In this document: piece by piece, positions 668 to 35,745 of the stretch
Layout: each line of letters starts with the position of its first letter
How positions within the stretch are numbered: position 1 is the stretch's first letter
Source: a virus
Lineage: Duplodnaviria > Heunggongvirae > Uroviricota > Caudoviricetes
Length of the DNA stretch: 36,636 nucleotides
Strand: one strand, 5' to 3'
IMG/VR virus record: IMGVR_UViG_2778261643_000013
Made by a program: the position numbers and the translations under genes
Notes under the pieces: model-generated
Seen by the model: the letters and a program-made list of their open reading frames with translations, nothing else
Databases searched by the model: none
What the model was told of the DNA's origin: nothing

Positions 668-3600
668 TCAGCTGATACTGATGCCTGCGGTGGCTTTCTT
701 CATCACCACAACCAGCAAATCGCTGATACTTGCTGTGGGATACCAGTCATTTACCAGCCATGATGACACCGAAAACTCCAGCGTCATGTGGCCGCGACCA
801 GCTGGCATATCAATAACGCCACTGTAAATCAGCGTATTATCCAGCGCGGTACGGTTATAAATTTCAGCACCGTTTTTCCGTACTATCAGGCGGCATGACG
901 AATAAATATCGTTATTCTCCCGCTCATGTTTAGCGCCGCTGAATGCCACCGCCGGAATAACAATCTGCCGGTCAAACGGCTGATCGTCATAAACCCTGAC
1001 GGTGATGGTCCCTGATGGCCACCGTTCCGGTGCACGGGAGTCCCGGGGGAAAGCTTTGCCCACTGTTTTAACGAGATCGCCTTCAATCTGGTTGGCGGAC
1101 AGTTTTCCCAGAACCCGACAGTTCTCGTTAATCGTGACGTTGTTGAGCGTCCCGGAGTTCGCATTCACGTTACCGCTGATATCGGCATTTTTCGCCGTCA
1201 GCCGCCCGTCCGGTGTCAGGGAAAATGCCGGTGGATTTCCACCGCTGGTAATGGTGGGGGCCGTCAGGCGTTTCAGGAACACGTCGTTCATGAATATCTG
1301 ATCGCCCTGACCAACAAACATCGGTTTTGTGTTGCCATTCGCAGGATTAATCATCGCAATCCTGTCCGCCGCCAGCAGCACCTGACTCTGCATGCCGTCA
1401 GGGGTGTTCTCAATACCGGCACCAATACCCGCGATATAAAGGCGTCCGTCCTGCATCTGCTGCAGCTTCACAGCCCACATGCTGTTCAGGTTATTATTTG
1501 TATCAACCTGAACCTTCTGTATCTGCTGAATTGCCGCACTCTGGTCTTCCAGTTTCTTATTGACGGTCTGCGTGATTTCATTGCTGACATCCTTAATGGA
1601 CGTCCTGATTTCAGCCAGGTCAGGCGCAAGCTGACCGTTATCAATCTGCGTCCACAGCTCCTGAGCCAGATGGGTTTTCCCTATCTCGCCTTTGAAAAAA
1701 TCCAGATAGCCGGATGCATCATCACTCGGCTGACCAACAGCCTCCACGAATGCCGATTTGCCAACGGTGTTCACACTGCGAACGTAAAAATAATAATTAT
1801 GGCCCGGTTTGATATTGATACTGGCGGCTATCCAGTACAGCCCCGTGCCAAGGTAGCGCGCTGTGGTTTCAACCTGCCTGATATCGGTAATCCGCTTTTC
1901 CGAAAACCAGAACTCAAACTGTACCGTCGGGTCATAAACGGCAAGATGCGGCGTGGCGGTTATCTGAAAATACCCCGGCGTCAGCTCAATCCGCGACGGT
2001 GCTACCGGTGCGGCAATCCGGAACGATACCGACGCCGGATCGCCCTGCTGTCCCCACGCATTTACCGCCCGGACTGTCAGCGTGTACCGCCCCAGCGCCA
2101 GTTGCGTGAAGCGGTATGTGGTTTCCGTCGTCCGGGCCGTGCTGACCAGCCGCTCACGGCCGTCATCCGCTGCCACGGTCAGGCGAAGCAGGAAGCTCAC
2201 GCCCTTCACCACCTTCGGCGTGTCCCAGCGGGCCAGCACCTGGTATTCCCCGCTGTCTGCGGTGACTTCTGCGGTCAGGTGCTGCACCGCTGGCGGCGTG
2301 ACACCATTTACCGTGCCGCTCTGGTCGCCGTCAAAGTGCGCCCCGTTATCCACGATGGCCTCTTTTTCCGGTACATGCTGCACGGCGGTGATGGCATACG
2401 TGCCGTCGTCGTTCTCACGGATACTCACGCAGCGGAACAGGCGCTGGCGCAACGTCGGCAGCTTCAGCCCCCATACGCTGTATTCAGCAACGCCGTCAGG
2501 AACACGGCTCACTTTCACCTTCACGCCGTCGGTGACGGACTGAACCTCCACGCTGACCGGACTCCCCTGCCCGTCAACCAGGCTTATCAGCGTGGTGCCG
2601 GAAGATGGCAGCGTGATTTCACGGTCGAGCGTCAGCGTCCGGGTCTGGCTGTTCACAGCCAGCACGCGCCCGCCGATGCTGATACCGGCATAGTCATCAT
2701 CGCAGATTTCAATAACATCACCCGGCACATGGCGAAGCCCTTCGGCACCCACGCTGAAATCCACGGTCTGCGTCTCCAGCAGCTCCGTTTTAATCAGCCA
2801 CAGCCCGGCGCGGTGCGCCTGCCCCCGGCTGGTACAGCCAAAGGCATCCATCTTCGTGACGTTACGACCGTAACGGGCAATGGCCTGCGTATCTTCAACA
2901 AGCTCTGTCGCCGTCTCCCAGCCGTTGTTCGGGTCAATCCAGTTCACCTCAACGGCATTATGGCGGTCCTTCAGGGCGCTGAAGCTGTAGCGGAACGGCG
3001 CGCCATCATCCGGCATCACCACATTACTGCGGTTATAGGCCCACACCTTATCTGATGGTCGGTCCTGCACGAACGTCAGCGTCTGCCCGTTCCATACCGG
3101 CATACAGCGCATCGCCGAGCAGAAATCACTGAGCACATTCCACGCCTTGCGCTGTGTGGTCAGGTACGCATTACAGGTGATGCGCGGCTCCGTGCCGCCA
3201 AAGCCGTCCGGCACTGACTGGTCGCAGTACTGGCCGATGACATACAGCGCCCATTTATCCACATCCGCCGCACCAAGACGTTTCCCCATGCCGTAGCGCG
3301 GATGGGTCAGCATATCCCACAGACACCAGGCCATGTTGTTGCTGTATGCCGGTTTAAACGTTCCGTCCCAGATACCGCTGTATTGCCGCGTCTGCGGGTT
3401 ATAATTCGACGGCACCTGCAGAATACGCCCGCGCAGATGATAATTACGGCTCACCTGCTGGCTGCCGAACTGCTCCGAATCCACCTGCACGCCGACCAGT
3501 GCCGTGTTCGGGTAGCACTGTTTCACATCGATGATTTCGGTGTATGACGACCAGAGCGTTTTGTTCTGCAGCTGGTCTGTGGTGCTGTCCGGCGTCATCC

Positions 3601-21721: not shown

Positions 21722-21796
<75 letters not shown>

Positions 21797-21799
21797 ATA

Positions 21800-21875
<76 letters not shown>

Positions 21876-21877
21876 AC

Positions 21878-21954
21878 TGGACCGCCACCGGGGACTCGAA
21901 CCTCGCACACTCAACTTAAAGGGTTGACGCTCTTTCCTGATGAGCTAGTGGCGG
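21878..21954 (-). tRNA. tRNA-like gene of uncertain identity (anticodon loop CCUUUAA)
   Basis: 77 nt; perfect 7-bp acceptor stem, normal D and T arms, 5-bp anticodon stem; positions 34-36 read UUU but position 33 is C and discriminator is U. Confidence 0.55.
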
Positions 21955-21955
21955 C

Positions 21956-22031
21956 TGGTGGCCCTTGCTGGATTTGAACCAGCGACCTGGCGATTATGAG
22001 TCGCTCGCTCTCACCACTGAGCTAAAGGGCC
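21956..22031 (-). tRNA. ileZ: tRNA-Ile2 (anticodon CAU, ileX/ileZ-like)
   Basis: 76 nt; anticodon loop CUCAUAA; closely resembles E. coli ileX rather than elongator tRNA-Met. Confidence 0.75.
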
Positions 22032-24780: not shown

Positions 24781-24936
24781 TTACTCCTCAGGTTCGTAAG
24801 CTGTGAAGACAGCGACCTCCGTCTGGCCGGTTCGGATTCGTACCTCGCAGAGGTCTTTCCTCGTTACCAGTGCCGTCACTATGACGGTTAAACAGATGAC
24901 GATCAGGGCGATTAGCATCGCCTTTTGCTGCTTCAT
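24781..24936 (-). CDS. hokD: Hok/Gef-family type I toxin
   Basis: 51 aa MKQQKAMLIALIVICLTVIVTALVTRKDLCEVRIRTGQTEVAVFTAYEPEE; AAGGAG SD; single TM. Confidence 0.85.
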   Translation of the reverse strand: MKQQKAMLIALIVICLTVIVTALVTRKDLCEVRIRTGQTEVAVFTAYEPEE

Positions 24937-25170
24937 AGCCTGCTTCTCCTTGCCTTTCGGCACGTAAGAGGCTAACCTAGATTTGCCGTTCATAGATTGA
25001 GCCTCAGATTAATGTTAAGCGTCTTGCAGGACGCGTAATGTTAACTGGGGCTTTTCTCTATCTGCCTTTTGGTGTTCATGCCTGAGGCAGATAGCCTCAA
25101 GCACCCGCAGCAATTTTACTTAACTCCCGCTACCTCGCCAATATGAAATCAATAAGAAAGGTGCTCCATA
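24937..25170 (-). promoter_or_regulatory. hok mRNA leader / presumptive Sok antisense region
   Basis: In-frame upstream reading frame (mok-like) and a 9-bp stem (CTATCTGCC/GGCAGATAG) with 19-nt loop at 25058-25094. Confidence 0.4.
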
Positions 25171-29151: not shown

Positions 29152-29523
29152 ATGCAAAAAAAAGAAATTCGCCGTTTACGTCTCAAGGAGTGGTTTAAAG
29201 ATAAAACTCTGCCACCCAAAGAGAAGAGCTACCTATCTCAACTAATGAGTGGGAGAGCCTCGTTTGGAGAAAAGGCTGCCAGAAGAATAGAGCAAACATA
29301 CGGGATGCCGGAAGGGTATCTGGATGCGGAATACGCAGAACAACCGGAGGTTTCTCTACCACATGCAGGGTTAACGTCTAATCAACTGGAATTATTGCAG
29401 ATTTTTTCAGCCTTCCCTGAGGATGAGCAACGCCAGATAATCAGCGAGTTAAAGCAGAAAAAAGAATCAATGGAAGATCTCATAGCGAGATGGATTGCGG
29501 CGCAAAAATGCCGCCGCGCCTGA
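29152..29523 (+). CDS. Prophage repressor (HTH_XRE, RacR-like), probably leaderless
   Basis: ATG at 29152 without SD; HTH ...EKSYLSQLMSGRASFGEKAARRIEQTYGMPEGYLD... Confidence 0.7.
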   Translation: MQKKEIRRLRLKEWFKDKTLPPKEKSYLSQLMSGRASFGEKAARRIEQTYGMPEGYLDAEYAEQPEVSLPHAGLTSNQLELLQIFSAFPEDEQRQIISELKQKKESMEDLIARWIAAQKCRRA

Positions 29524-29543
29524 GTTATAAAACCGGAGGAAAC

Positions 29544-29735
29544 ATGAATAGAGCCCTTTCACCAATGGTTTCTGAATTTGAAACCATTGAACAAGAAAAC
29601 AGTTACAACGAATGGCTGCGTGCGAAAGTAGCAACGAGCCTTGCAGATCCGCGCCCAGCAATTCCCCATGACGAAGTTGAGCGCAGAATGGCAGAACGCT
29701 TTGCTAAAATGCGCAAGGAACGGAGCAAGCAGTAA
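29544..29735 (+). CDS. Type II antitoxin (ParD/RelB-like)
   Basis: 63 aa; strong SD GGAGGA; ...WLRAKVATSLADPRPAIPHDEVERRMAERFA... antitoxin-like. Confidence 0.6.
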   Translation: MNRALSPMVSEFETIEQENSYNEWLRAKVATSLADPRPAIPHDEVERRMAERFAKMRKERSKQ

Positions 29736-29736
29736 A

Positions 29737-30015
29737 ATGTTACCCGTGTTATGGCTTGAAAGCGCAGATACCAACCTAGATGATATAACTAGTTATATTG
29801 CTCGTTTCGACATAGATGCGGCTGAACGCTTATGGCAGCGATTAAGGGGTTGTGTGCTGCCGTTATCCGAACATCCGTATTTATACCCACCAAGCGACAG
29901 AGTACCTGGCTTGCGTGAGATTGTAGCCCACCCTAACTATATAATTCTATACCGCGTAACAACATCAAGCGTTGAAGTAGTAAACGTGATCCACGCAAGA
30001 CGCCAGTTTCCCTAA
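29737..30015 (+). CDS. Type II toxin (ParE/RelE family)
   Basis: 92 aa starting 1 nt after the antitoxin stop; ...GLREIVAHPNYIILYRVTTSSVEVVNVIHARRQFP is ParE-like. Confidence 0.65.
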   Translation: MLPVLWLESADTNLDDITSYIARFDIDAAERLWQRLRGCVLPLSEHPYLYPPSDRVPGLREIVAHPNYIILYRVTTSSVEVVNVIHARRQFP

Positions 30016-30225: not shown

Positions 30226-30435
30226 ATGACGGCAGGGTTCAACTTTAACTATGCAGCAGGTTTTTGTTCCGCAACCCCGGCGTTAAGGGGAAATGAGGTC
30301 AGCATGGATACTATCGATCTTGGCAACAACGAATCTCTGGTGTACGGCGTGTTTCCCAACCAGGACGGAACGTTCACCGCGATAACGTATACCAAAAGCA
30401 AAACGTTTAAAACCGAATCTGGCGCACGTCGCTGA
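30226..30435 (+). CDS. Small early protein (69 aa, or 43 aa from ATG 30304)
   Basis: ATG at 30226 with GAGG; internal ATG 30304 also has GAGG. Confidence 0.4.
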   Translation: MTAGFNFNYAAGFCSATPALRGNEVSMDTIDLGNNESLVYGVFPNQDGTFTAITYTKSKTFKTESGARR

Positions 30436-30837: not shown

Positions 30838-31404
30838 TAGCTAACCAACGAAGCTAAGGTTGGTAATTAAGGAGTTCTCCACGGGTGAGGTGGAGTGCGT
30901 GCGCCGGACACGGGTGAGCATCCGGCACTGACAGTTTACTGAAAGGATATTTCCATGAAAAGTCAGACCATAACGCGAAAGCGCACGGCGAGGTAGCTGG
31001 TTCATAGATAGCCTGTCGTTAAATTTTCGTCGACCGTGCGCTTCCGGTTGTGGCACTCCGCGAAATGACGCGGCGGTAAGTATGGCGGGGTTATTCCTTC
31101 CCCGTTGAGGACACCGGGTTGTCAGGTTGACCATACGCTTAAGTGACAACCCCGCTGCAACGCCCTCTGTTATCAATTTTCTGGTGACGTTTGGCGGTAT
31201 CAGTTTTACTCCGTGACTGCTCTGCCGCCCTTTTTAAAGTGAATTTTGTGATGCGGTGAATGCGGCTAAGCGCACGCGGAACAGTTAAAACCAAAAACAG
31301 TGTTATGGGTGGATTCTCTGTATCCGGCGTTAATTGTTAACTGGTTAACGTCACCTGGAGGCACCAGGCACCGCATCACAAAACTCATTGTTGAGGGCGC
31401 GATA
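30838..31404. other. 567-bp non-coding, GC-rich, highly structured region
   Basis: No credible ORF on either strand; multiple stems including a 15-bp long-range inverted repeat (31244-31258 / 31369-31383) and tandem GTTAAC palindromes near 31330-31350. Confidence 0.4.
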
Positions 31405-31593
31405 ATGAAAACGTTATTACCAAACGTTAATACGTCTGAAGGTTGTTTTGAAATTGGTGTCACTATCAGTAATCCTGTATTTACTGAAGATGCCATTAAC
31501 AAAAGAAAACACGAACGGGAGTTATTAAATAAAGTATGCATTGTTTCAATGCTGGCCCGTTTACGTCTGATGCCAAAGGGATGTGCACAATGA
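31405..31593 (+). CDS. Small protein (62 aa)
   Basis: ATG at 31405 with GAGGG SD; AT-rich. Confidence 0.45.
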   Translation: MKTLLPNVNTSEGCFEIGVTISNPVFTEDAINKRKHERELLNKVCIVSMLARLRLMPKGCAQ

Positions 31594-31781
31594 ATCCAGT
31601 ATTTGCACTTATTCTGACGGTTTTTCTTGTTTCCAGAGAGCCAGTTGATATTGCAGTCAGTGTTCACAGAACAATGCAGGAATGTATGGCAGCAGCAACC
31701 GAACAGAAAATTCCAGGCAACTGTTATCCGGTCGATAAAGTTATTCACCAGGATAATAACGAAATCCCGGCAGGATTTTAA
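31590..31781 (+). CDS. Small protein with hydrophobic N-terminus (63 aa)
   Basis: ATG at 31590 overlapping the previous stop (ATGA); N-terminal MNPVFALILTVFLV. Confidence 0.45.
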   Translation: MNPVFALILTVFLVSREPVDIAVSVHRTMQECMAAATEQKIPGNCYPVDKVIHQDNNEIPAGF

Positions 31782-31874: not shown

Positions 31875-34316
31875 ATGAGCACTGATAAAGAAGAATTTGC
31901 ACTATATTGCGAAGCAAAAAATGACAAAGTAAGAAAACGCCTAGGAATTAAAGGTGGTTTTTACTGGACTACAGCAAAAAAATTATCTGTTGCAATCTCC
32001 CGCTGCATTACCGCAATGGATGACAACGATTATGATGAAGACGACTTTAAAAAACCCGTCCGCGTCAATTTGCCCGTTGTTGACGACCTTCCGCCAGAAG
32101 GCGTGTTTGATACTGAATTCTGCAACCGCTATGAAAAAGGCGGGAAAGATGGCATCACAATGACATTTATCGGCCCTTCCCCCTCTGTTCAGGACAAACC
32201 AGCCAGCACTGACAATACCAACATCAACGGCGAAGACATGACTGAGATTGAGGAGAGCATGCTTCTGCCTGTCTCCGGTCAGGAACTGCCCATTCGTTGG
32301 CTTGCTCAACACGGCAGCGAAAAACCAGTAACGCACGTTTCACGCGACGAACTCCAGGCATTACACATTGCACGGGCTGAAGAACTACCGGCTGTTACTG
32401 CCCTGGCTATTTCGCATAAAACCAGTCTGCTCGACTCGCTGGAGATTCGCGACCTCCACAAACTGGTTCGTGACACTGACAAAGTTTTCCCTAATCCTGG
32501 TAATTCAGACCTGGGACTAATAACTGCTTTTTTCGAAGCATACCTGGACGCTGACTACACTGATCGGGGTCTGCTGACAAAAGAGTGGATGAAAGGAAAT
32601 CGTGTTTCACGCATCACCCGCACGGCTTCCGGTGCTAATGCTGGCGGTGGGAACAAAACCGATCGCAATCCGAATTTAGTACACACCCTCGACACACTGG
32701 ATGTGGAGATTGCAGCAGCCACACTTCCGATGGATTTTAATATTTATGAAATTCCGGGCAGCGTTTATCGTCGCGCAAAAGAAGTAGTCCTGAACAAAGA
32801 AAGTCCGTTCAAAGAATGGTCCGCAGCACTTCGTGCAACCCCGGGTATTCTGGACTATTCCCGCGCCGCTATTTTTGCACTTATCCGAAGCGCACACCCT
32901 GAATTTTATCACTACCCGGGACGCCTTCAGGGGTATATCAACGCCTATTTGACGGAAACTGATCACGAGACCCCCAGCAAGGAAACTCTCACAGCTGCCC
33001 GGCATACGCCGGAAAAAGATATCCTGGAAGAAATTAACCGCGAGGTGGTTACTGAGCGTGAAACAGAAGAAGAAAAACCACAACCATCTGACGCAATGGC
33101 AGGTGAACAGGCAACAACTGAAACAATGGAACCGGATACAACTGAACATGGCCAGAACGCGCAGTCGCTGGATGCTCAGTCGCAGGTGAGTTCCGCTAAC
33201 CAAGTAAAAGTCACCGCTGACGAAGTAAACAAAATTATGCAGGCAGCCAATATCAGCCAGCCTGACGCCGATAAGTTACTTGCTGTATCGCGTGGTGAAT
33301 TTGTTGAGGGGATTAGCGACCCTAATGATCCGAAATGGGTCAAGGGGATCCAGACTCGCGATTCTGTGAACCAGAACCAGCATGAATCGGAACGGAACGA
33401 CCAAAAAGCGGAACAAAACAGCCCAAATGCGTTACAAAACGAGCCAGAAACGAAACAATCCGAACCAGTAGCGCAACAGGAACCGGAAAAAGTCTGCACC
33501 GCCTGCGGTCAGAGCGGTGGCGGCAACTGCCCTGATTGTGGCGCGGTGATGGGCGACGCAACATACCAGGAAACATTCGATGAAGAGAATCAGGTTGAAG
33601 TTCAGGAAAATGATCCGGAGGAAATGGAAGGCGCTGAACATCCACACAAGGAGAACCCTGGCGGCAATCAGCATCACGCCAGCGATAATAAAACTGGCGA
33701 GGCGACAGATCCCTTAATTAAGGTGAATGGTCATCATAAGCTCACATCCACCAGCAGAGCGGGGATTCATCTGATGATCGACCTTGAAACCATGGGAATA
33801 AATCCCGATGCCCCGATTATCTCAATAGGCGCAATATTTTTCGATCCACAAACCGGAGATATGGGACCGGAATTTAGCAAGACCATCGATCTGGATACTG
33901 CTGGCGGAGTCATTGATCGTGACGTCATTAAATGGTGGCTGAAGCAATCACGTGAAGCGCAGTCTGCCATTATGACCGATGAAATCCCGTTAGATGATGC
34001 ACTACTGCAATTGCGGGAATTTATCGACGAAAACTCCGGTGAATTTTTTGTTCAGGTCTGGGGTAATGGGGCCAACTTCGACAACGTGATTTTACGCCGT
34101 TCATACGAACGACAGGGTATCCCCTGCCCATGGCGCTACTGCAACGATCGCGATGTACGCACAATCGTTGAGCTGGGGAAAGCCATAGACTTCGATGCCA
34201 GAACTGCTATCCCATTCGAAGGTGAGCGCCATAATGCACTTGATGACGCTCGTTACCAGGCAAAATACGTTTCAGCTATCTGGCAAAAACTGATCCCGAG
34301 TCAGGCTGATTTTTAA
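31875..34316 (+). CDS. Large multidomain protein: RecE-N-like region, zinc ribbon, C-terminal DEDDh 3'-5' exonuclease
   Basis: 813 aa; CTACGQSGGGNCPDCG zinc ribbon (33496-33543); C-terminal MIDLETMG, WGNGANFD and HNALDDARYQ exonuclease motifs (33760-34313); occupies the exo/recE slot before xis-int. Confidence 0.7.
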   Translation: MSTDKEEFALYCEAKNDKVRKRLGIKGGFYWTTAKKLSVAISRCITAMDDNDYDEDDFKKPVRVNLPVVDDLPPEGVFDTEFCNRYEKGGKDGITMTFIGPSPSVQDKPASTDNTNINGEDMTEIEESMLLPVSGQELPIRWLAQHGSEKPVTHVSRDELQALHIARAEELPAVTALAISHKTSLLDSLEIRDLHKLVRDTDKVFPNPGNSDLGLITAFFEAYLDADYTDRGLLTKEWMKGNRVSRITRTASGANAGGGNKTDRNPNLVHTLDTLDVEIAAATLPMDFNIYEIPGSVYRRAKEVVLNKESPFKEWSAALRATPGILDYSRAAIFALIRSAHPEFYHYPGRLQGYINAYLTETDHETPSKETLTAARHTPEKDILEEINREVVTERETEEEKPQPSDAMAGEQATTETMEPDTTEHGQNAQSLDAQSQVSSANQVKVTADEVNKIMQAANISQPDADKLLAVSRGEFVEGISDPNDPKWVKGIQTRDSVNQNQHESERNDQKAEQNSPNALQNEPETKQSEPVAQQEPEKVCTACGQSGGGNCPDCGAVMGDATYQETFDEENQVEVQENDPEEMEGAEHPHKENPGGNQHHASDNKTGEATDPLIKVNGHHKLTSTSRAGIHLMIDLETMGINPDAPIISIGAIFFDPQTGDMGPEFSKTIDLDTAGGVIDRDVIKWWLKQSREAQSAIMTDEIPLDDALLQLREFIDENSGEFFVQVWGNGANFDNVILRRSYERQGIPCPWRYCNDRDVRTIVELGKAIDFDARTAIPFEGERHNALDDARYQAKYVSAIWQKLIPSQADF

Positions 34317-34374: not shown

Positions 34375-34578
34375 ATGAGCAGCTTATTTTTAACCGAAGA
34401 TGAATTGCTAATATTAACGGGCTGCAAATATGCAAGCCACCAGCGAAAATGGTTAATGGAAAACGGGCTTCCGTTCTATACCAATCGTAGTGGCAAACCG
34501 ATTGTCAGCCGGGATCTATTTACCTGCAATAAAACTTTACCACCACGCGAGGTAGAGCCGAATTTTGGTGCGATCTGA
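34375..34578 (+). CDS. xis: Excisionase-like protein
   Basis: 67 aa immediately upstream of int with ATGA overlap. Confidence 0.6.
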   Translation: MSSLFLTEDELLILTGCKYASHQRKWLMENGLPFYTNRSGKPIVSRDLFTCNKTLPPREVEPNFGAI

Positions 34579-35603
34579 TGGGAAGACGAAGGAAAAATCC
34601 TGAACACGAAAAATTACCTCCAAATGCATACCCAAATAAATATAGTTATGTATGGAAACCAACATCCAGAGAATCTGTCACACTAACCGCCATCAAGGAT
34701 GGTTTAGCTGCTTTATGGAAAAAGTATGAGGAAACTGTAAATAATCGCGATCGTGCAATGACATTCGGTCGCTTGTGGGAAAAATTCCTCGCCAGCGCCT
34801 ATTACAGTGACCTTAGTCCAAGAACACAAAAAGATTATCTGCAACATCAAAAAAAGTTGCTTGCCGTATTCGGTAAGGTACCAGCGGATTCCATAAAACC
34901 AGAACACATCCGTCGATACATGGACAAAAGAGGGGAGCAGAGTAAAACACAAGCCAACCATGAAAAAAGCAGTATGTCCCGTGTTTACAGTTGGGGGTAT
35001 GAGCGAGGGTACGTCAAGGCTAACCCATGTGCAGGTGTAAGTAAATTCAAGGCCAAAAACCGCGAACGATATGTAACCGACAAAGAATACCAGGCAGTAT
35101 TAAGCGTTGCACCTCTTCCTGTTTTTATCGCAATGGAAATTGCCTATCTGTGTGCAGCGAGGGTTTCCGATGTGTTATCGCTGAAATGGGAACAGATTGG
35201 AAACGACGGGATATTCATCCAGCAAGGGAAAACCGGAAAAAAACAGATAAAAGCATGGAGTCCACGATTACAGGCAGCGATCGAAAAAGCAAAACAGTTA
35301 CCAAAATCTGCCTATGTGATCAGCAATCAATACGGCAACCGATATATGTACAAAGGCTTTAACGAAATGTGGGTAGAAGCAAGAAATCGTGCTGGAAAAA
35401 TTTCAGGTATTTTAACCGACTTCACCTTTCATGATCTGAAGGCGAAAGGAATTTCAGACTATGAAGGAAGCAGCCGGGATAAGCAACTTTTCTCTGGTCA
35501 CAAAACCGAAGGGCAAGTGCTAATCTATGACAGGAAGGTTAAAGTTTCACCAACACTTGATGTCCCGTTACCTGAAAATATTCCAAGAAAATATTCCAAG
35601 TAA
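34578..35603 (+). CDS. int: Tyrosine-type site-specific integrase
   Basis: 341 aa; catalytic ...ARVSDVLSL..., ...HDLKAKG..., ...VLIYD... ; adjacent to the tRNA 3' end. Confidence 0.9.
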   Translation: MGRRRKNPEHEKLPPNAYPNKYSYVWKPTSRESVTLTAIKDGLAALWKKYEETVNNRDRAMTFGRLWEKFLASAYYSDLSPRTQKDYLQHQKKLLAVFGKVPADSIKPEHIRRYMDKRGEQSKTQANHEKSSMSRVYSWGYERGYVKANPCAGVSKFKAKNRERYVTDKEYQAVLSVAPLPVFIAMEIAYLCAARVSDVLSLKWEQIGNDGIFIQQGKTGKKQIKAWSPRLQAAIEKAKQLPKSAYVISNQYGNRYMYKGFNEMWVEARNRAGKISGILTDFTFHDLKAKGISDYEGSSRDKQLFSGHKTEGQVLIYDRKVKVSPTLDVPLPENIPRKYSK

Positions 35604-35655: not shown

Positions 35656-35745
35656 TGGCGGAGAGAGGGGGATTTGAACCCCCGGTGGAGTTGCCCCCAC
35701 TCCGGTTTTCGAGACCGGTCCGTTCAGCCGCTCCGGCATCTCTCC
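35656..35745 (-). tRNA. serU: tRNA-Ser (anticodon CGA), integration target
   Basis: 90 nt with long variable arm; anticodon loop CUCGAAA; 3' end faces int. Confidence 0.85.

Follow-up and report, generated by a model that had tools for sequence, protein, structure and literature searches.

What occupies the 567 nt at positions 30838–31404 of the window, as we call the whole 36,636-nt stretch of viral DNA analyzed here? The original prediction described this gap as a GC-rich, highly structured and ORF-free region of an early-left prophage operon, and judged a structured RNA or a regulatory protein-binding array to be more consistent with it than spacer DNA. The ORF list and the sequence together place the gap precisely between the ydfC stop codon and the dicB ATG. 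It is almost certainly the stretch between the ydfC and dicB cistrons of a prophage dicBF operon, encoding the small RNA DicF together with its processing stems. The DicF/dicBF processing region is a real, functional and already known locus, and what had been overlooked is how well characterized it is, with a DicF gene, a terminator and published RNase III positions.

DicF and DicB are prophage products that halt host cell division and rewire sugar metabolism, and they promote virulence in enterohemorrhagic E. coli. Identifying the gap as their processing region guards against mistaking it for a new element. The features of the gap and its surroundings are collected in Table 1.

Table 1. Features of the dicBF region and of the surrounding prophage (coordinates in the window).
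Feature	Position	Strand	Basis or remark
Late tRNA cluster, Gly-tcc, Thr-tgt, Lys-ttt, Met-cat	21722–22031	-	
sok antisense RNA of hok/sok, full length	24931–25106	-	Rfam RF01794, 114 bits
PaaA2-type antitoxin (PF21217) and ParE toxin (PF05016)	29490–30015	+	Between the cI-like ORF and ydfA
ydfC, upstream cistron, 72 aa	30619–30837	+	ORF; position and gene order match K-12 ydfC
ydfC-proximal untranslated segment	30838–30957	+	Small hairpins; mosaic/variable
Upstream RNase III hairpin, 22 bp in four segments (7+2+10+3)	30968–31053	+	Variable apical loop
Leader of the 190-nt pre-DicF, several hairpins, predicted to be removed by RNase E	31042–31178	+	Fold; PMC10448788
Hairpin with A/U-rich loop AUUUUC (31176–31181)	31168–31189	+	Inferred RNase E cut at the mature DicF 5′ end
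DicF sRNA, 53 nt, intrinsic terminator included	31179–31231	+	Rfam RF00039; identity to K-12 dicF (b1574)
Long-range stem, 5′ arm (5 + 15 bp)	31238–31258	+	Predicted 3′ end of 72-nt DicF (~31250) lies inside
Stem-enclosed multi-hairpin domain, diverged STnc100/PasD relative	31242–31382	+	Sub-threshold match to Rfam RF02076
10-bp hairpin with both GTTAAC copies (31336–31341 in the loop, 31344–31349 in the 3′ strand)	31326–31352	+	
Hairpin CCUGG-AGGCA-CCAGG	31354–31368	+	Loop and flanking CACC motifs conserved in STnc100
Long-range stem, 3′ arm	31369–31389	+	Ends 16 nt before the dicB ATG
dicB, 62 aa	31405–31593	+	Pfam PF05358, E = 5e-40, positions 1–62/62
ydfD (DUF1482)	31590–31781	+	Pfam PF07358, E = 2e-24; last small gene of the K-12 operon
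RecE-like protein, 813 aa, Exonuc_VIII and Rv2179c-like 3′-5′ exonuclease domain	31875–34316	+	
tRNA-Ser (cga)	35656–35745	-	Just past the integrase ORF 34578–35603

The gap carries an intact DicF gene

An Rfam scan, which had been proposed as a check, recovered full-length DicF within the gap: the RF00039 model matches 31179–31230 on the plus strand with 76.7 bits (gathering score 48) over positions 1–52 of 52 (E = 2e-15 for the whole window). In pairwise alignment, all 53 nt are identical to those of K-12 dicF. The gene sits between ydfC and dicB, with all three on the plus strand, which is the layout of dicBF. DicF of K-12 targets ftsZ, manX, xylR, and pykA (PMC5069750); given the identical sequence, the copy in the window should therefore repress the same four genes by base pairing.

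The DicF terminator forms a hairpin at 31193–31229, composed of the stems 31193–31199/31223–31229 and 31201–31204/31216–31219, and is followed by the U tract UUUUU at 31231–31235. A simple terminator scan missed this hairpin because it limits loops to 3–8 nt. In the global minimum-energy fold, the 3′ strand of the terminator (31227–31232) pairs with the Shine-Dalgarno-like GAGGGC that precedes dicB (31393–31398); we do not consider this pairing a conserved feature, since it needs GAGGGC and most homologues carry GAGGAC.

In composition, the gap is GC-rich only mildly, at 0.50–0.54 compared with 0.38–0.49 in its flanks. Its high degree of structure is borne out by folding: the plus-strand RNA reaches -225.9 kcal/mol (z = -5.55), none of 100 shuffled sequences folds as well, and the stem-enclosed part at 31236–31392 stands out by itself with z = -5.98. 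In the ydfC-proximal segment, a 10-nt direct repeat, CACGGGTGAG, occurs at 30880 and 30909; judged by eye, without separate folding, each copy seems to lie mostly in the loop of a short hairpin.

Two long stems at the RNase III positions of K-12

Processing of DicF has been worked out in E. coli K-12. There, the DicA-repressed promoter dicBp drives the operon, no internal promoter having been found, and gives rise to transcripts of 1146 nt, ending at the DicF terminator, and of 1608 nt, reading through to dicB-ydfD (PMC10448788). RNase III makes the 5′ end of a 190-nt DicF precursor, which builds up upon RNase E inactivation, and RNase E makes the 5′ end of the 53-nt form (PMC10448788). With these results, Ragunathan et al (2023; PMC10448788) confirm the scheme of Faubladier et al (1990). 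In addition, a 72-nt DicF acquires an alternative 3′ end through RNase III acting on the full-length mRNA (Balasubramanian et al, 2016, PMC5069750; 2022 review, PMC9438474). Where PMC10448788, PMC5069750, and PMC9438474 deal with RNase III cleavage in K-12, all three cite Faubladier et al (1990).

The gap contains two helices of the length expected of RNase III substrates (about 20 bp or more). The first, the upstream hairpin, folds with -37.4 kcal/mol (z = -2.8). The second is a long-range stem, a 20-bp helix of 5+15 bp with one 1x1 internal loop. Its core is the perfect 15-bp inverted repeat with arms 110 nt apart that had been pointed out before (31244–31258/31369–31383); the fuller arms, 31240–31258 and 31369–31387, comprise 19 nt each and are 95% complementary at the same spacing. 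By our own estimate, a perfect 15-mer inverted repeat is expected by chance about 1e-4 times in 567 nt.

The lengths of the K-12 products allow their ends to be placed on these stems by arithmetic. Counting 190 nt back from 31231 leads to ~31042, in the 3′ strand of the upstream hairpin, and counting 72 nt on from 31179 leads to ~31250, in the 5′ arm of the long-range stem; as the positions are carried over from K-12 by nucleotide counting, they may be off by 1–2 nt. By analogy with K-12, both large stems would thus coincide with the published RNase III cleavage positions. When the 190-nt species is folded, the mature 5′ end of DicF lies in the A/U-rich loop and the terminator hairpin stays intact. 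With the DicF gene and its processing stems identified, the preference for a structured RNA over spacer DNA proved right.

We propose the following scheme, with the cleavages, the responsible RNases, and the Hfq dependence taken from K-12. In this lambdoid prophage of the Qin/Rac type, dicBF would be the PL-like early-left operon, under a DicA-type repressor and transcribed on the plus strand within ydfABC-dicF-dicB-ydfD. RNase III would cut the hairpin 30968–31053 at ~31042 and release a 190-nt precursor ending at the DicF terminator, and RNase E would then cut the A/U-rich loop at 31178/31179 to give the mature 53-nt, Hfq-dependent DicF. Most transcripts would end at the DicF terminator, and those that read through would form the 31238–31258/31369–31389 stem. 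RNase III cutting of this stem at ~31250 would produce the 72-nt DicF and a dicB-ydfD mRNA with a short leader. The long-range stem can be formed by read-through transcripts alone, and its cleavage would split DicF from the dicB-ydfD mRNA. A further cut in the 3′ arm would leave a dicB leader starting roughly 27 nt before the ATG and might affect dicB expression. The enclosed 110-nt domain, including the GTTAAC hairpin, would represent a conserved RNA fold related to STnc100/PasD.

Long stems of this kind are familiar from phage lambda, where, in the N leader and in sib/int retroregulation, host RNase III cuts a long stem in an early transcript and thereby separates or destabilizes cistrons. 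The cutting of a double-stranded stem is alike in both cases; there is no sequence similarity, and, unlike in lambda, the cuts proposed here would also set the ends of an sRNA. DicF further resembles SroC (from gltIJKL), CpxQ, and SdhX, which arise from mRNAs by early termination and endonucleolytic 5′ processing (PMC9438474). However, these sRNAs depend on RNase E alone and lie at the very end of their operons, whereas DicF lies inside its operon and additionally has two RNase III stems.

Conservation of the DicF cassette

The region is widespread: of 5426 complete E. coli genomes, 4642 contain it, at a median of 2 and a maximum of nine copies. Among phage records, 39 contain it, and in one of them, phage Tritos, DicF is annotated at the same place. 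The PGAP annotation of E. coli genomes is mostly blank over the gap; scans will therefore keep flagging it, and the remedy is annotation.

For comparison, we gathered 94 distinct versions of 30950–31412 from IMG/VR and from species-representative genomes. Across these homologues, 98.2% of the pair cells are paired, with 99.6% in the long-range stem and 94.7–98.5% in the stem of the upstream hairpin, even as its apex is replaced. Covariation analysis had been suggested as a check, and this set on its own proved uninformative: variation is too low and the shuffle control equals the observed 98.2%, so that the pairing among DicF-linked homologues counts as consistency only and not as proof. The long-range stem is polymorphic at two positions (C-G/U-G/U-A and G-C/G-U), and these changes preserve pairing only in plus-strand RNA.

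Sequence conservation is distributed unevenly. Both the segment 31284–31320 and the apical loop of the upstream hairpin are freely replaced with the stems left intact. In contrast, 31330–31370 is nearly invariant and as strongly conserved as DicF. The hairpin that holds the two tandem GTTAAC palindromes (a pair correctly noted in the original prediction) is likewise nearly invariant in the 94 DicF-linked homologues. The invariance of 31330–31370 is beyond what RNase III recognition alone explains.

The limits of homology vary on the upstream side, where it sets in at 30858, 30880, 30898, 30950, 30958, or 30969 depending on the prophage, and all of these mosaic junctions lie upstream of the first RNase III hairpin. 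On the downstream side, homology ends in several prophages directly past the 3′ arm of the long-range stem. From these limits on both sides, we conclude that DicF, the two stems and the enclosed domain behave as one cassette. In one prophage (L027), a different 77-aa gene follows the cassette in place of dicB. In two further loci, L047 (1796–1984, minus strand) and L093 (5462–5650, plus strand), homology stops past the closing stem and no dicB follows directly; IsrK and C4 antisense RNAs are found downstream of DicF in these loci, at ~0.2 kb in L047 and ~1.1 kb in L093.

Searching 596 Gb of genome contigs with a DicF pattern of 17 specified bases gave 72 matches, most of which are chance matches, as expected for a search space of this size. 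Real loci are found only in Escherichia, Shigella, and Salmonella and on two contigs of metagenome-assembled genomes (MAGs); the Salmonella match has only DicF in common, over 47 nt. The two MAG contigs, L173 (Veillonella parvula) and L181 (Proteobacteria), carry true homologues of the dicF region (87–94% identical) and are most likely mis-binned E. coli prophage contigs. In a Planctomycetota MAG, MohnsGC08_bin181, the 19-nt DicF core is matched exactly at least eight times on different contigs (L130, L139, L151, L153, L155, L161, L162, and L191); these matches look like an unrelated dispersed repeat and not like DicF.

The stem-enclosed domain is a diverged relative of STnc100

In a permissive Rfam scan, the domain between the arms of the long-range stem matched the STnc100 family (RF02076) with 38.8 bits, below the gathering score of 47 (E = 3e-7 to 1e-6). 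The match spans positions 21–154 of the 206-position model, and the 3′ third (155–206) is missing; past the closing stem, the sequence continues into the ribosome-binding site of dicB. Of 13 further DicF-linked loci, none reached the STnc100 gathering score.

For the reverse comparison, we built a covariance model, R1, from 21 DicF-linked spacers only and searched the window, phage lambda, 22 loci with canonical STnc100, and L060, a locus with a DicF spacer as well as an STnc100 copy. R1 finds STnc100 in all 22 STnc100-containing loci (30–48 bits, E = 3e-6 to 3e-11) and finds nothing in lambda. In one locus, L198, the R1 matches coincide with four tandem STnc100 copies that score 77–132 bits in Rfam. 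These copies lie at 2265–3380 on the minus strand, between two tRNA genes and a gene for a 681-aa esterase-like protein, and indicate that the fold can be arrayed head to tail.

Covariation was also assessed in a joint, model-fitted alignment of the DicF-linked spacers with STnc100. Here, pairing extends to 96.2% of the cells, and compensatory changes are seen in 28 of the 40 pairs; not one of 500 shuffles gets to the observed value, and slid controls are paired at 34–42%. This covariation is good but not unbiased evidence, since a model-fitted alignment leans toward its own structure. Where the spacer domain has the GTTAAC hairpin, STnc100 has hairpins of different sequence and the same shape, with compensatory changes in 8 of 10 pairs. 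The middle pair of the hairpin that follows is U-A here and G-C in STnc100.

The two RNAs share their overall architecture: a closing stem, GGUGAAU, a 5′ hairpin, a variable middle, a hairpin, and then the block UCACCnGGAGGCACCnGGCACC, which is nearly identical between the spacer domain and STnc100. Both are also found in lambdoid prophages, and STnc100 and the PasD sRNAs in Stx prophages too. The two RNAs differ in the closing stem, which has 20 bp in the spacer domain and 8 bp in STnc100, and in their location: the spacer domain belongs to the early-left operon, between dicF and dicB, whereas the canonical copies that we examined reside in the late region, between tRNA genes and the gene for a 681-aa esterase. 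Many canonical copies are accompanied by a terminator-like GC-rich hairpin and a U run downstream of the core. STnc100 has further been located 75 nt downstream of stx2 (PMC12370729). From the sequence, an alternative pairing is conceivable in which GGUGA (31254–31258) pairs either with CACC of the closing stem (31369–31372) or with UCACC (31351–31355) ahead of the last hairpin; the DicF-linked spacers and STnc100 alike conserve the two CACC motifs. We also considered STnc100 as a counterpart of an RNase III-processed late leader of phage lambda and rejected this idea, as the lambda Q–S region has neither an Rfam nor an R1 match.

Taken together, the spacer domain is a diverged relative of STnc100 and not a member of the family by Rfam criteria, because its score falls short of the threshold, the 3′ third of the model has no counterpart in it, and it belongs to a different operon. 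A 2026 preprint (10.64898/2026.05.13.724894) ties STnc100 structurally to the PasD sRNAs and does not mention DicF. The kinship of the dicF–dicB spacer with STnc100/PasD may therefore be unreported and new. This kinship points to the repeated use of a single RNA fold by lambdoid prophages, at several intercistronic positions, and leaves the overall picture of a DicF/dicB processing region unchanged.

Possible further roles of the gap

The domain enclosed by the long-range stem (~31251–31377) could be more than a scaffold for RNase III: after excision, it might serve as a separate STnc100/PasD-type sRNA that binds Hfq, or it might control dicB translation or stability in cis. We regard this as a tentative addition to the processing scheme, which it would extend and not replace, and as distinctly less probable than a role in processing alone. 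It would account for the strong conservation of 31330–31370 next to the freely replaced segment 31284–31320, for the significant similarity to STnc100 in both search directions with its 28 covarying pairs, and for the module edge directly past the closing stem in prophages that carry another downstream gene. Its relatives also behave as RNAs in their own right: the PasD sRNAs are abundant, Hfq-bound, and validated by northern blot (preprint 10.64898/2026.05.13.724894), and RT-qPCR has revealed STnc100 in preparations of outer-membrane vesicles (PMC12370729). On the other hand, no stable RNA of the dicF–dicB spacer is described in the literature that we searched, and the score of the domain stays under the Rfam threshold. 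The unmatched model positions 155–206 weigh in the same direction, given that canonical copies often end in a terminator-like structure. RNase III products tend to be unstable unless they carry a terminator. If the spacer RNA is functional, it would link an element of the early operon to a widespread late-region prophage sRNA family, and the dicBF operon would have in this domain either a second regulatory RNA, once excised, or a cis element setting the amount of DicB.

Hidden coding capacity is very unlikely. The view that the gap has no plausible ORF holds for supported reading frames, but not for mechanical ones, which do occur: a 111-aa ORF on the minus strand (30841–31176), ORFs of 26–29 aa, among them a 26-aa ORF at 31260–31340, and an open dicB frame upstream of the ATG, which provides a 97-aa in-frame extension from GTG 31300. 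A longer DicB starting at this GTG would be in line with the title of Cam et al (1988), as cited in PMC5069750, which refers to translation from an in-phase internal start. However, the 111-aa ORF has no match in a Pfam search and is interrupted by 1-nt indels among homologues (commonly CCCC vs. CCCCC near 31100), the small plus-strand ORFs are hit by the insertions and replacements in 31284–31320, and DicB fits its Pfam model end to end from ATG 31405. The K-12 annotation likewise has no coding gene within the ydfC–dicB gap.

Very unlikely as well is a DNA operator array governing dicB, formed by the inverted repeat and the GTTAAC copies: although GTTAAC is a perfect palindrome that occurs twice in 14 bp alongside one GTTAAT, is invariant in the DicF-linked set, and is accompanied by a weak promoter-like match on the minus strand (31340–31313), the substitutions in the long-range stem retain G-U pairing, which is meaningful only in plus-strand RNA, the STnc100 relatives keep the same hairpin paired without GTTAAC, K-12 experiments found no promoter inside the operon (PMC10448788), and the 10 GTTAAC copies in the whole window are not significantly above the 6.0 ± 2.4 expected by chance. 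Thus, of the two readings offered by the original prediction, the protein-binding array is disfavored by the pattern of substitutions, and the comparison with STnc100 (28 of 40 pairs covarying) favors an RNA structure.

The surrounding prophage

The gene content around the dicBF operon is lambdoid and agrees with the predicted placement in the early-left operon of a prophage. The window represents a fairly complete lambdoid prophage, with tail, terminase, lysis, Q-like, hok/sok, and replication genes. Upstream of the gap, the flanking ORFs encode YdfA (DUF1391, by Pfam match), YdfB, and YdfC; the YdfC product matches no Pfam family. The cI-like ORF has no Pfam match either, and we regard it as the DicA counterpart from its position. 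We also considered the upstream CCCUGAAAAGUCAGGG hairpin as a boxB-like nut site and rejected it; it is disrupted in the window and in K-12 and intact in some homologues. The dicBF operon contains no N gene.

The closest known system is the cryptic Qin prophage of K-12 (annotated in strain MG1655), which has the same gene order, ydfA-ydfB-ydfC-dicF-dicB-ydfD. Its gap is likewise 567 nt long and ~97% identical, differing by ~15 substitutions but by no insertion or deletion. The stems are shared as well, at the sites for which RNase III and RNase E processing has been published. The 15 bp of the long-range stem that are perfect here include two G-U wobbles in K-12.

Beyond the operon core, the two prophages diverge. 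The one in the window is far more complete than Qin and includes tail, terminase, lysis, Q, replication, recE, and integrase ORFs. The RecE-like gene directly follows ydfD, while the corresponding K-12 region is interrupted by IS2. The antitoxin–toxin pair PaaA2/ParE is inserted between the repressor gene and ydfA, where Qin has no genes. Unlike its K-12 counterpart, ydfA carries a premature stop (TGA at 30433–30435), so that the product ends in ...ESGARR and lacks the last 8 residues, WLERNSGE, of the L027 frame; some decay of the operon is therefore possible. The tRNA-Ser gene beside the integrase, which also sets this prophage apart from Qin, is probably the attachment site. Finally, sok lies a few kb from DicF in four other loci as well (L014, L015, L047, and L181).
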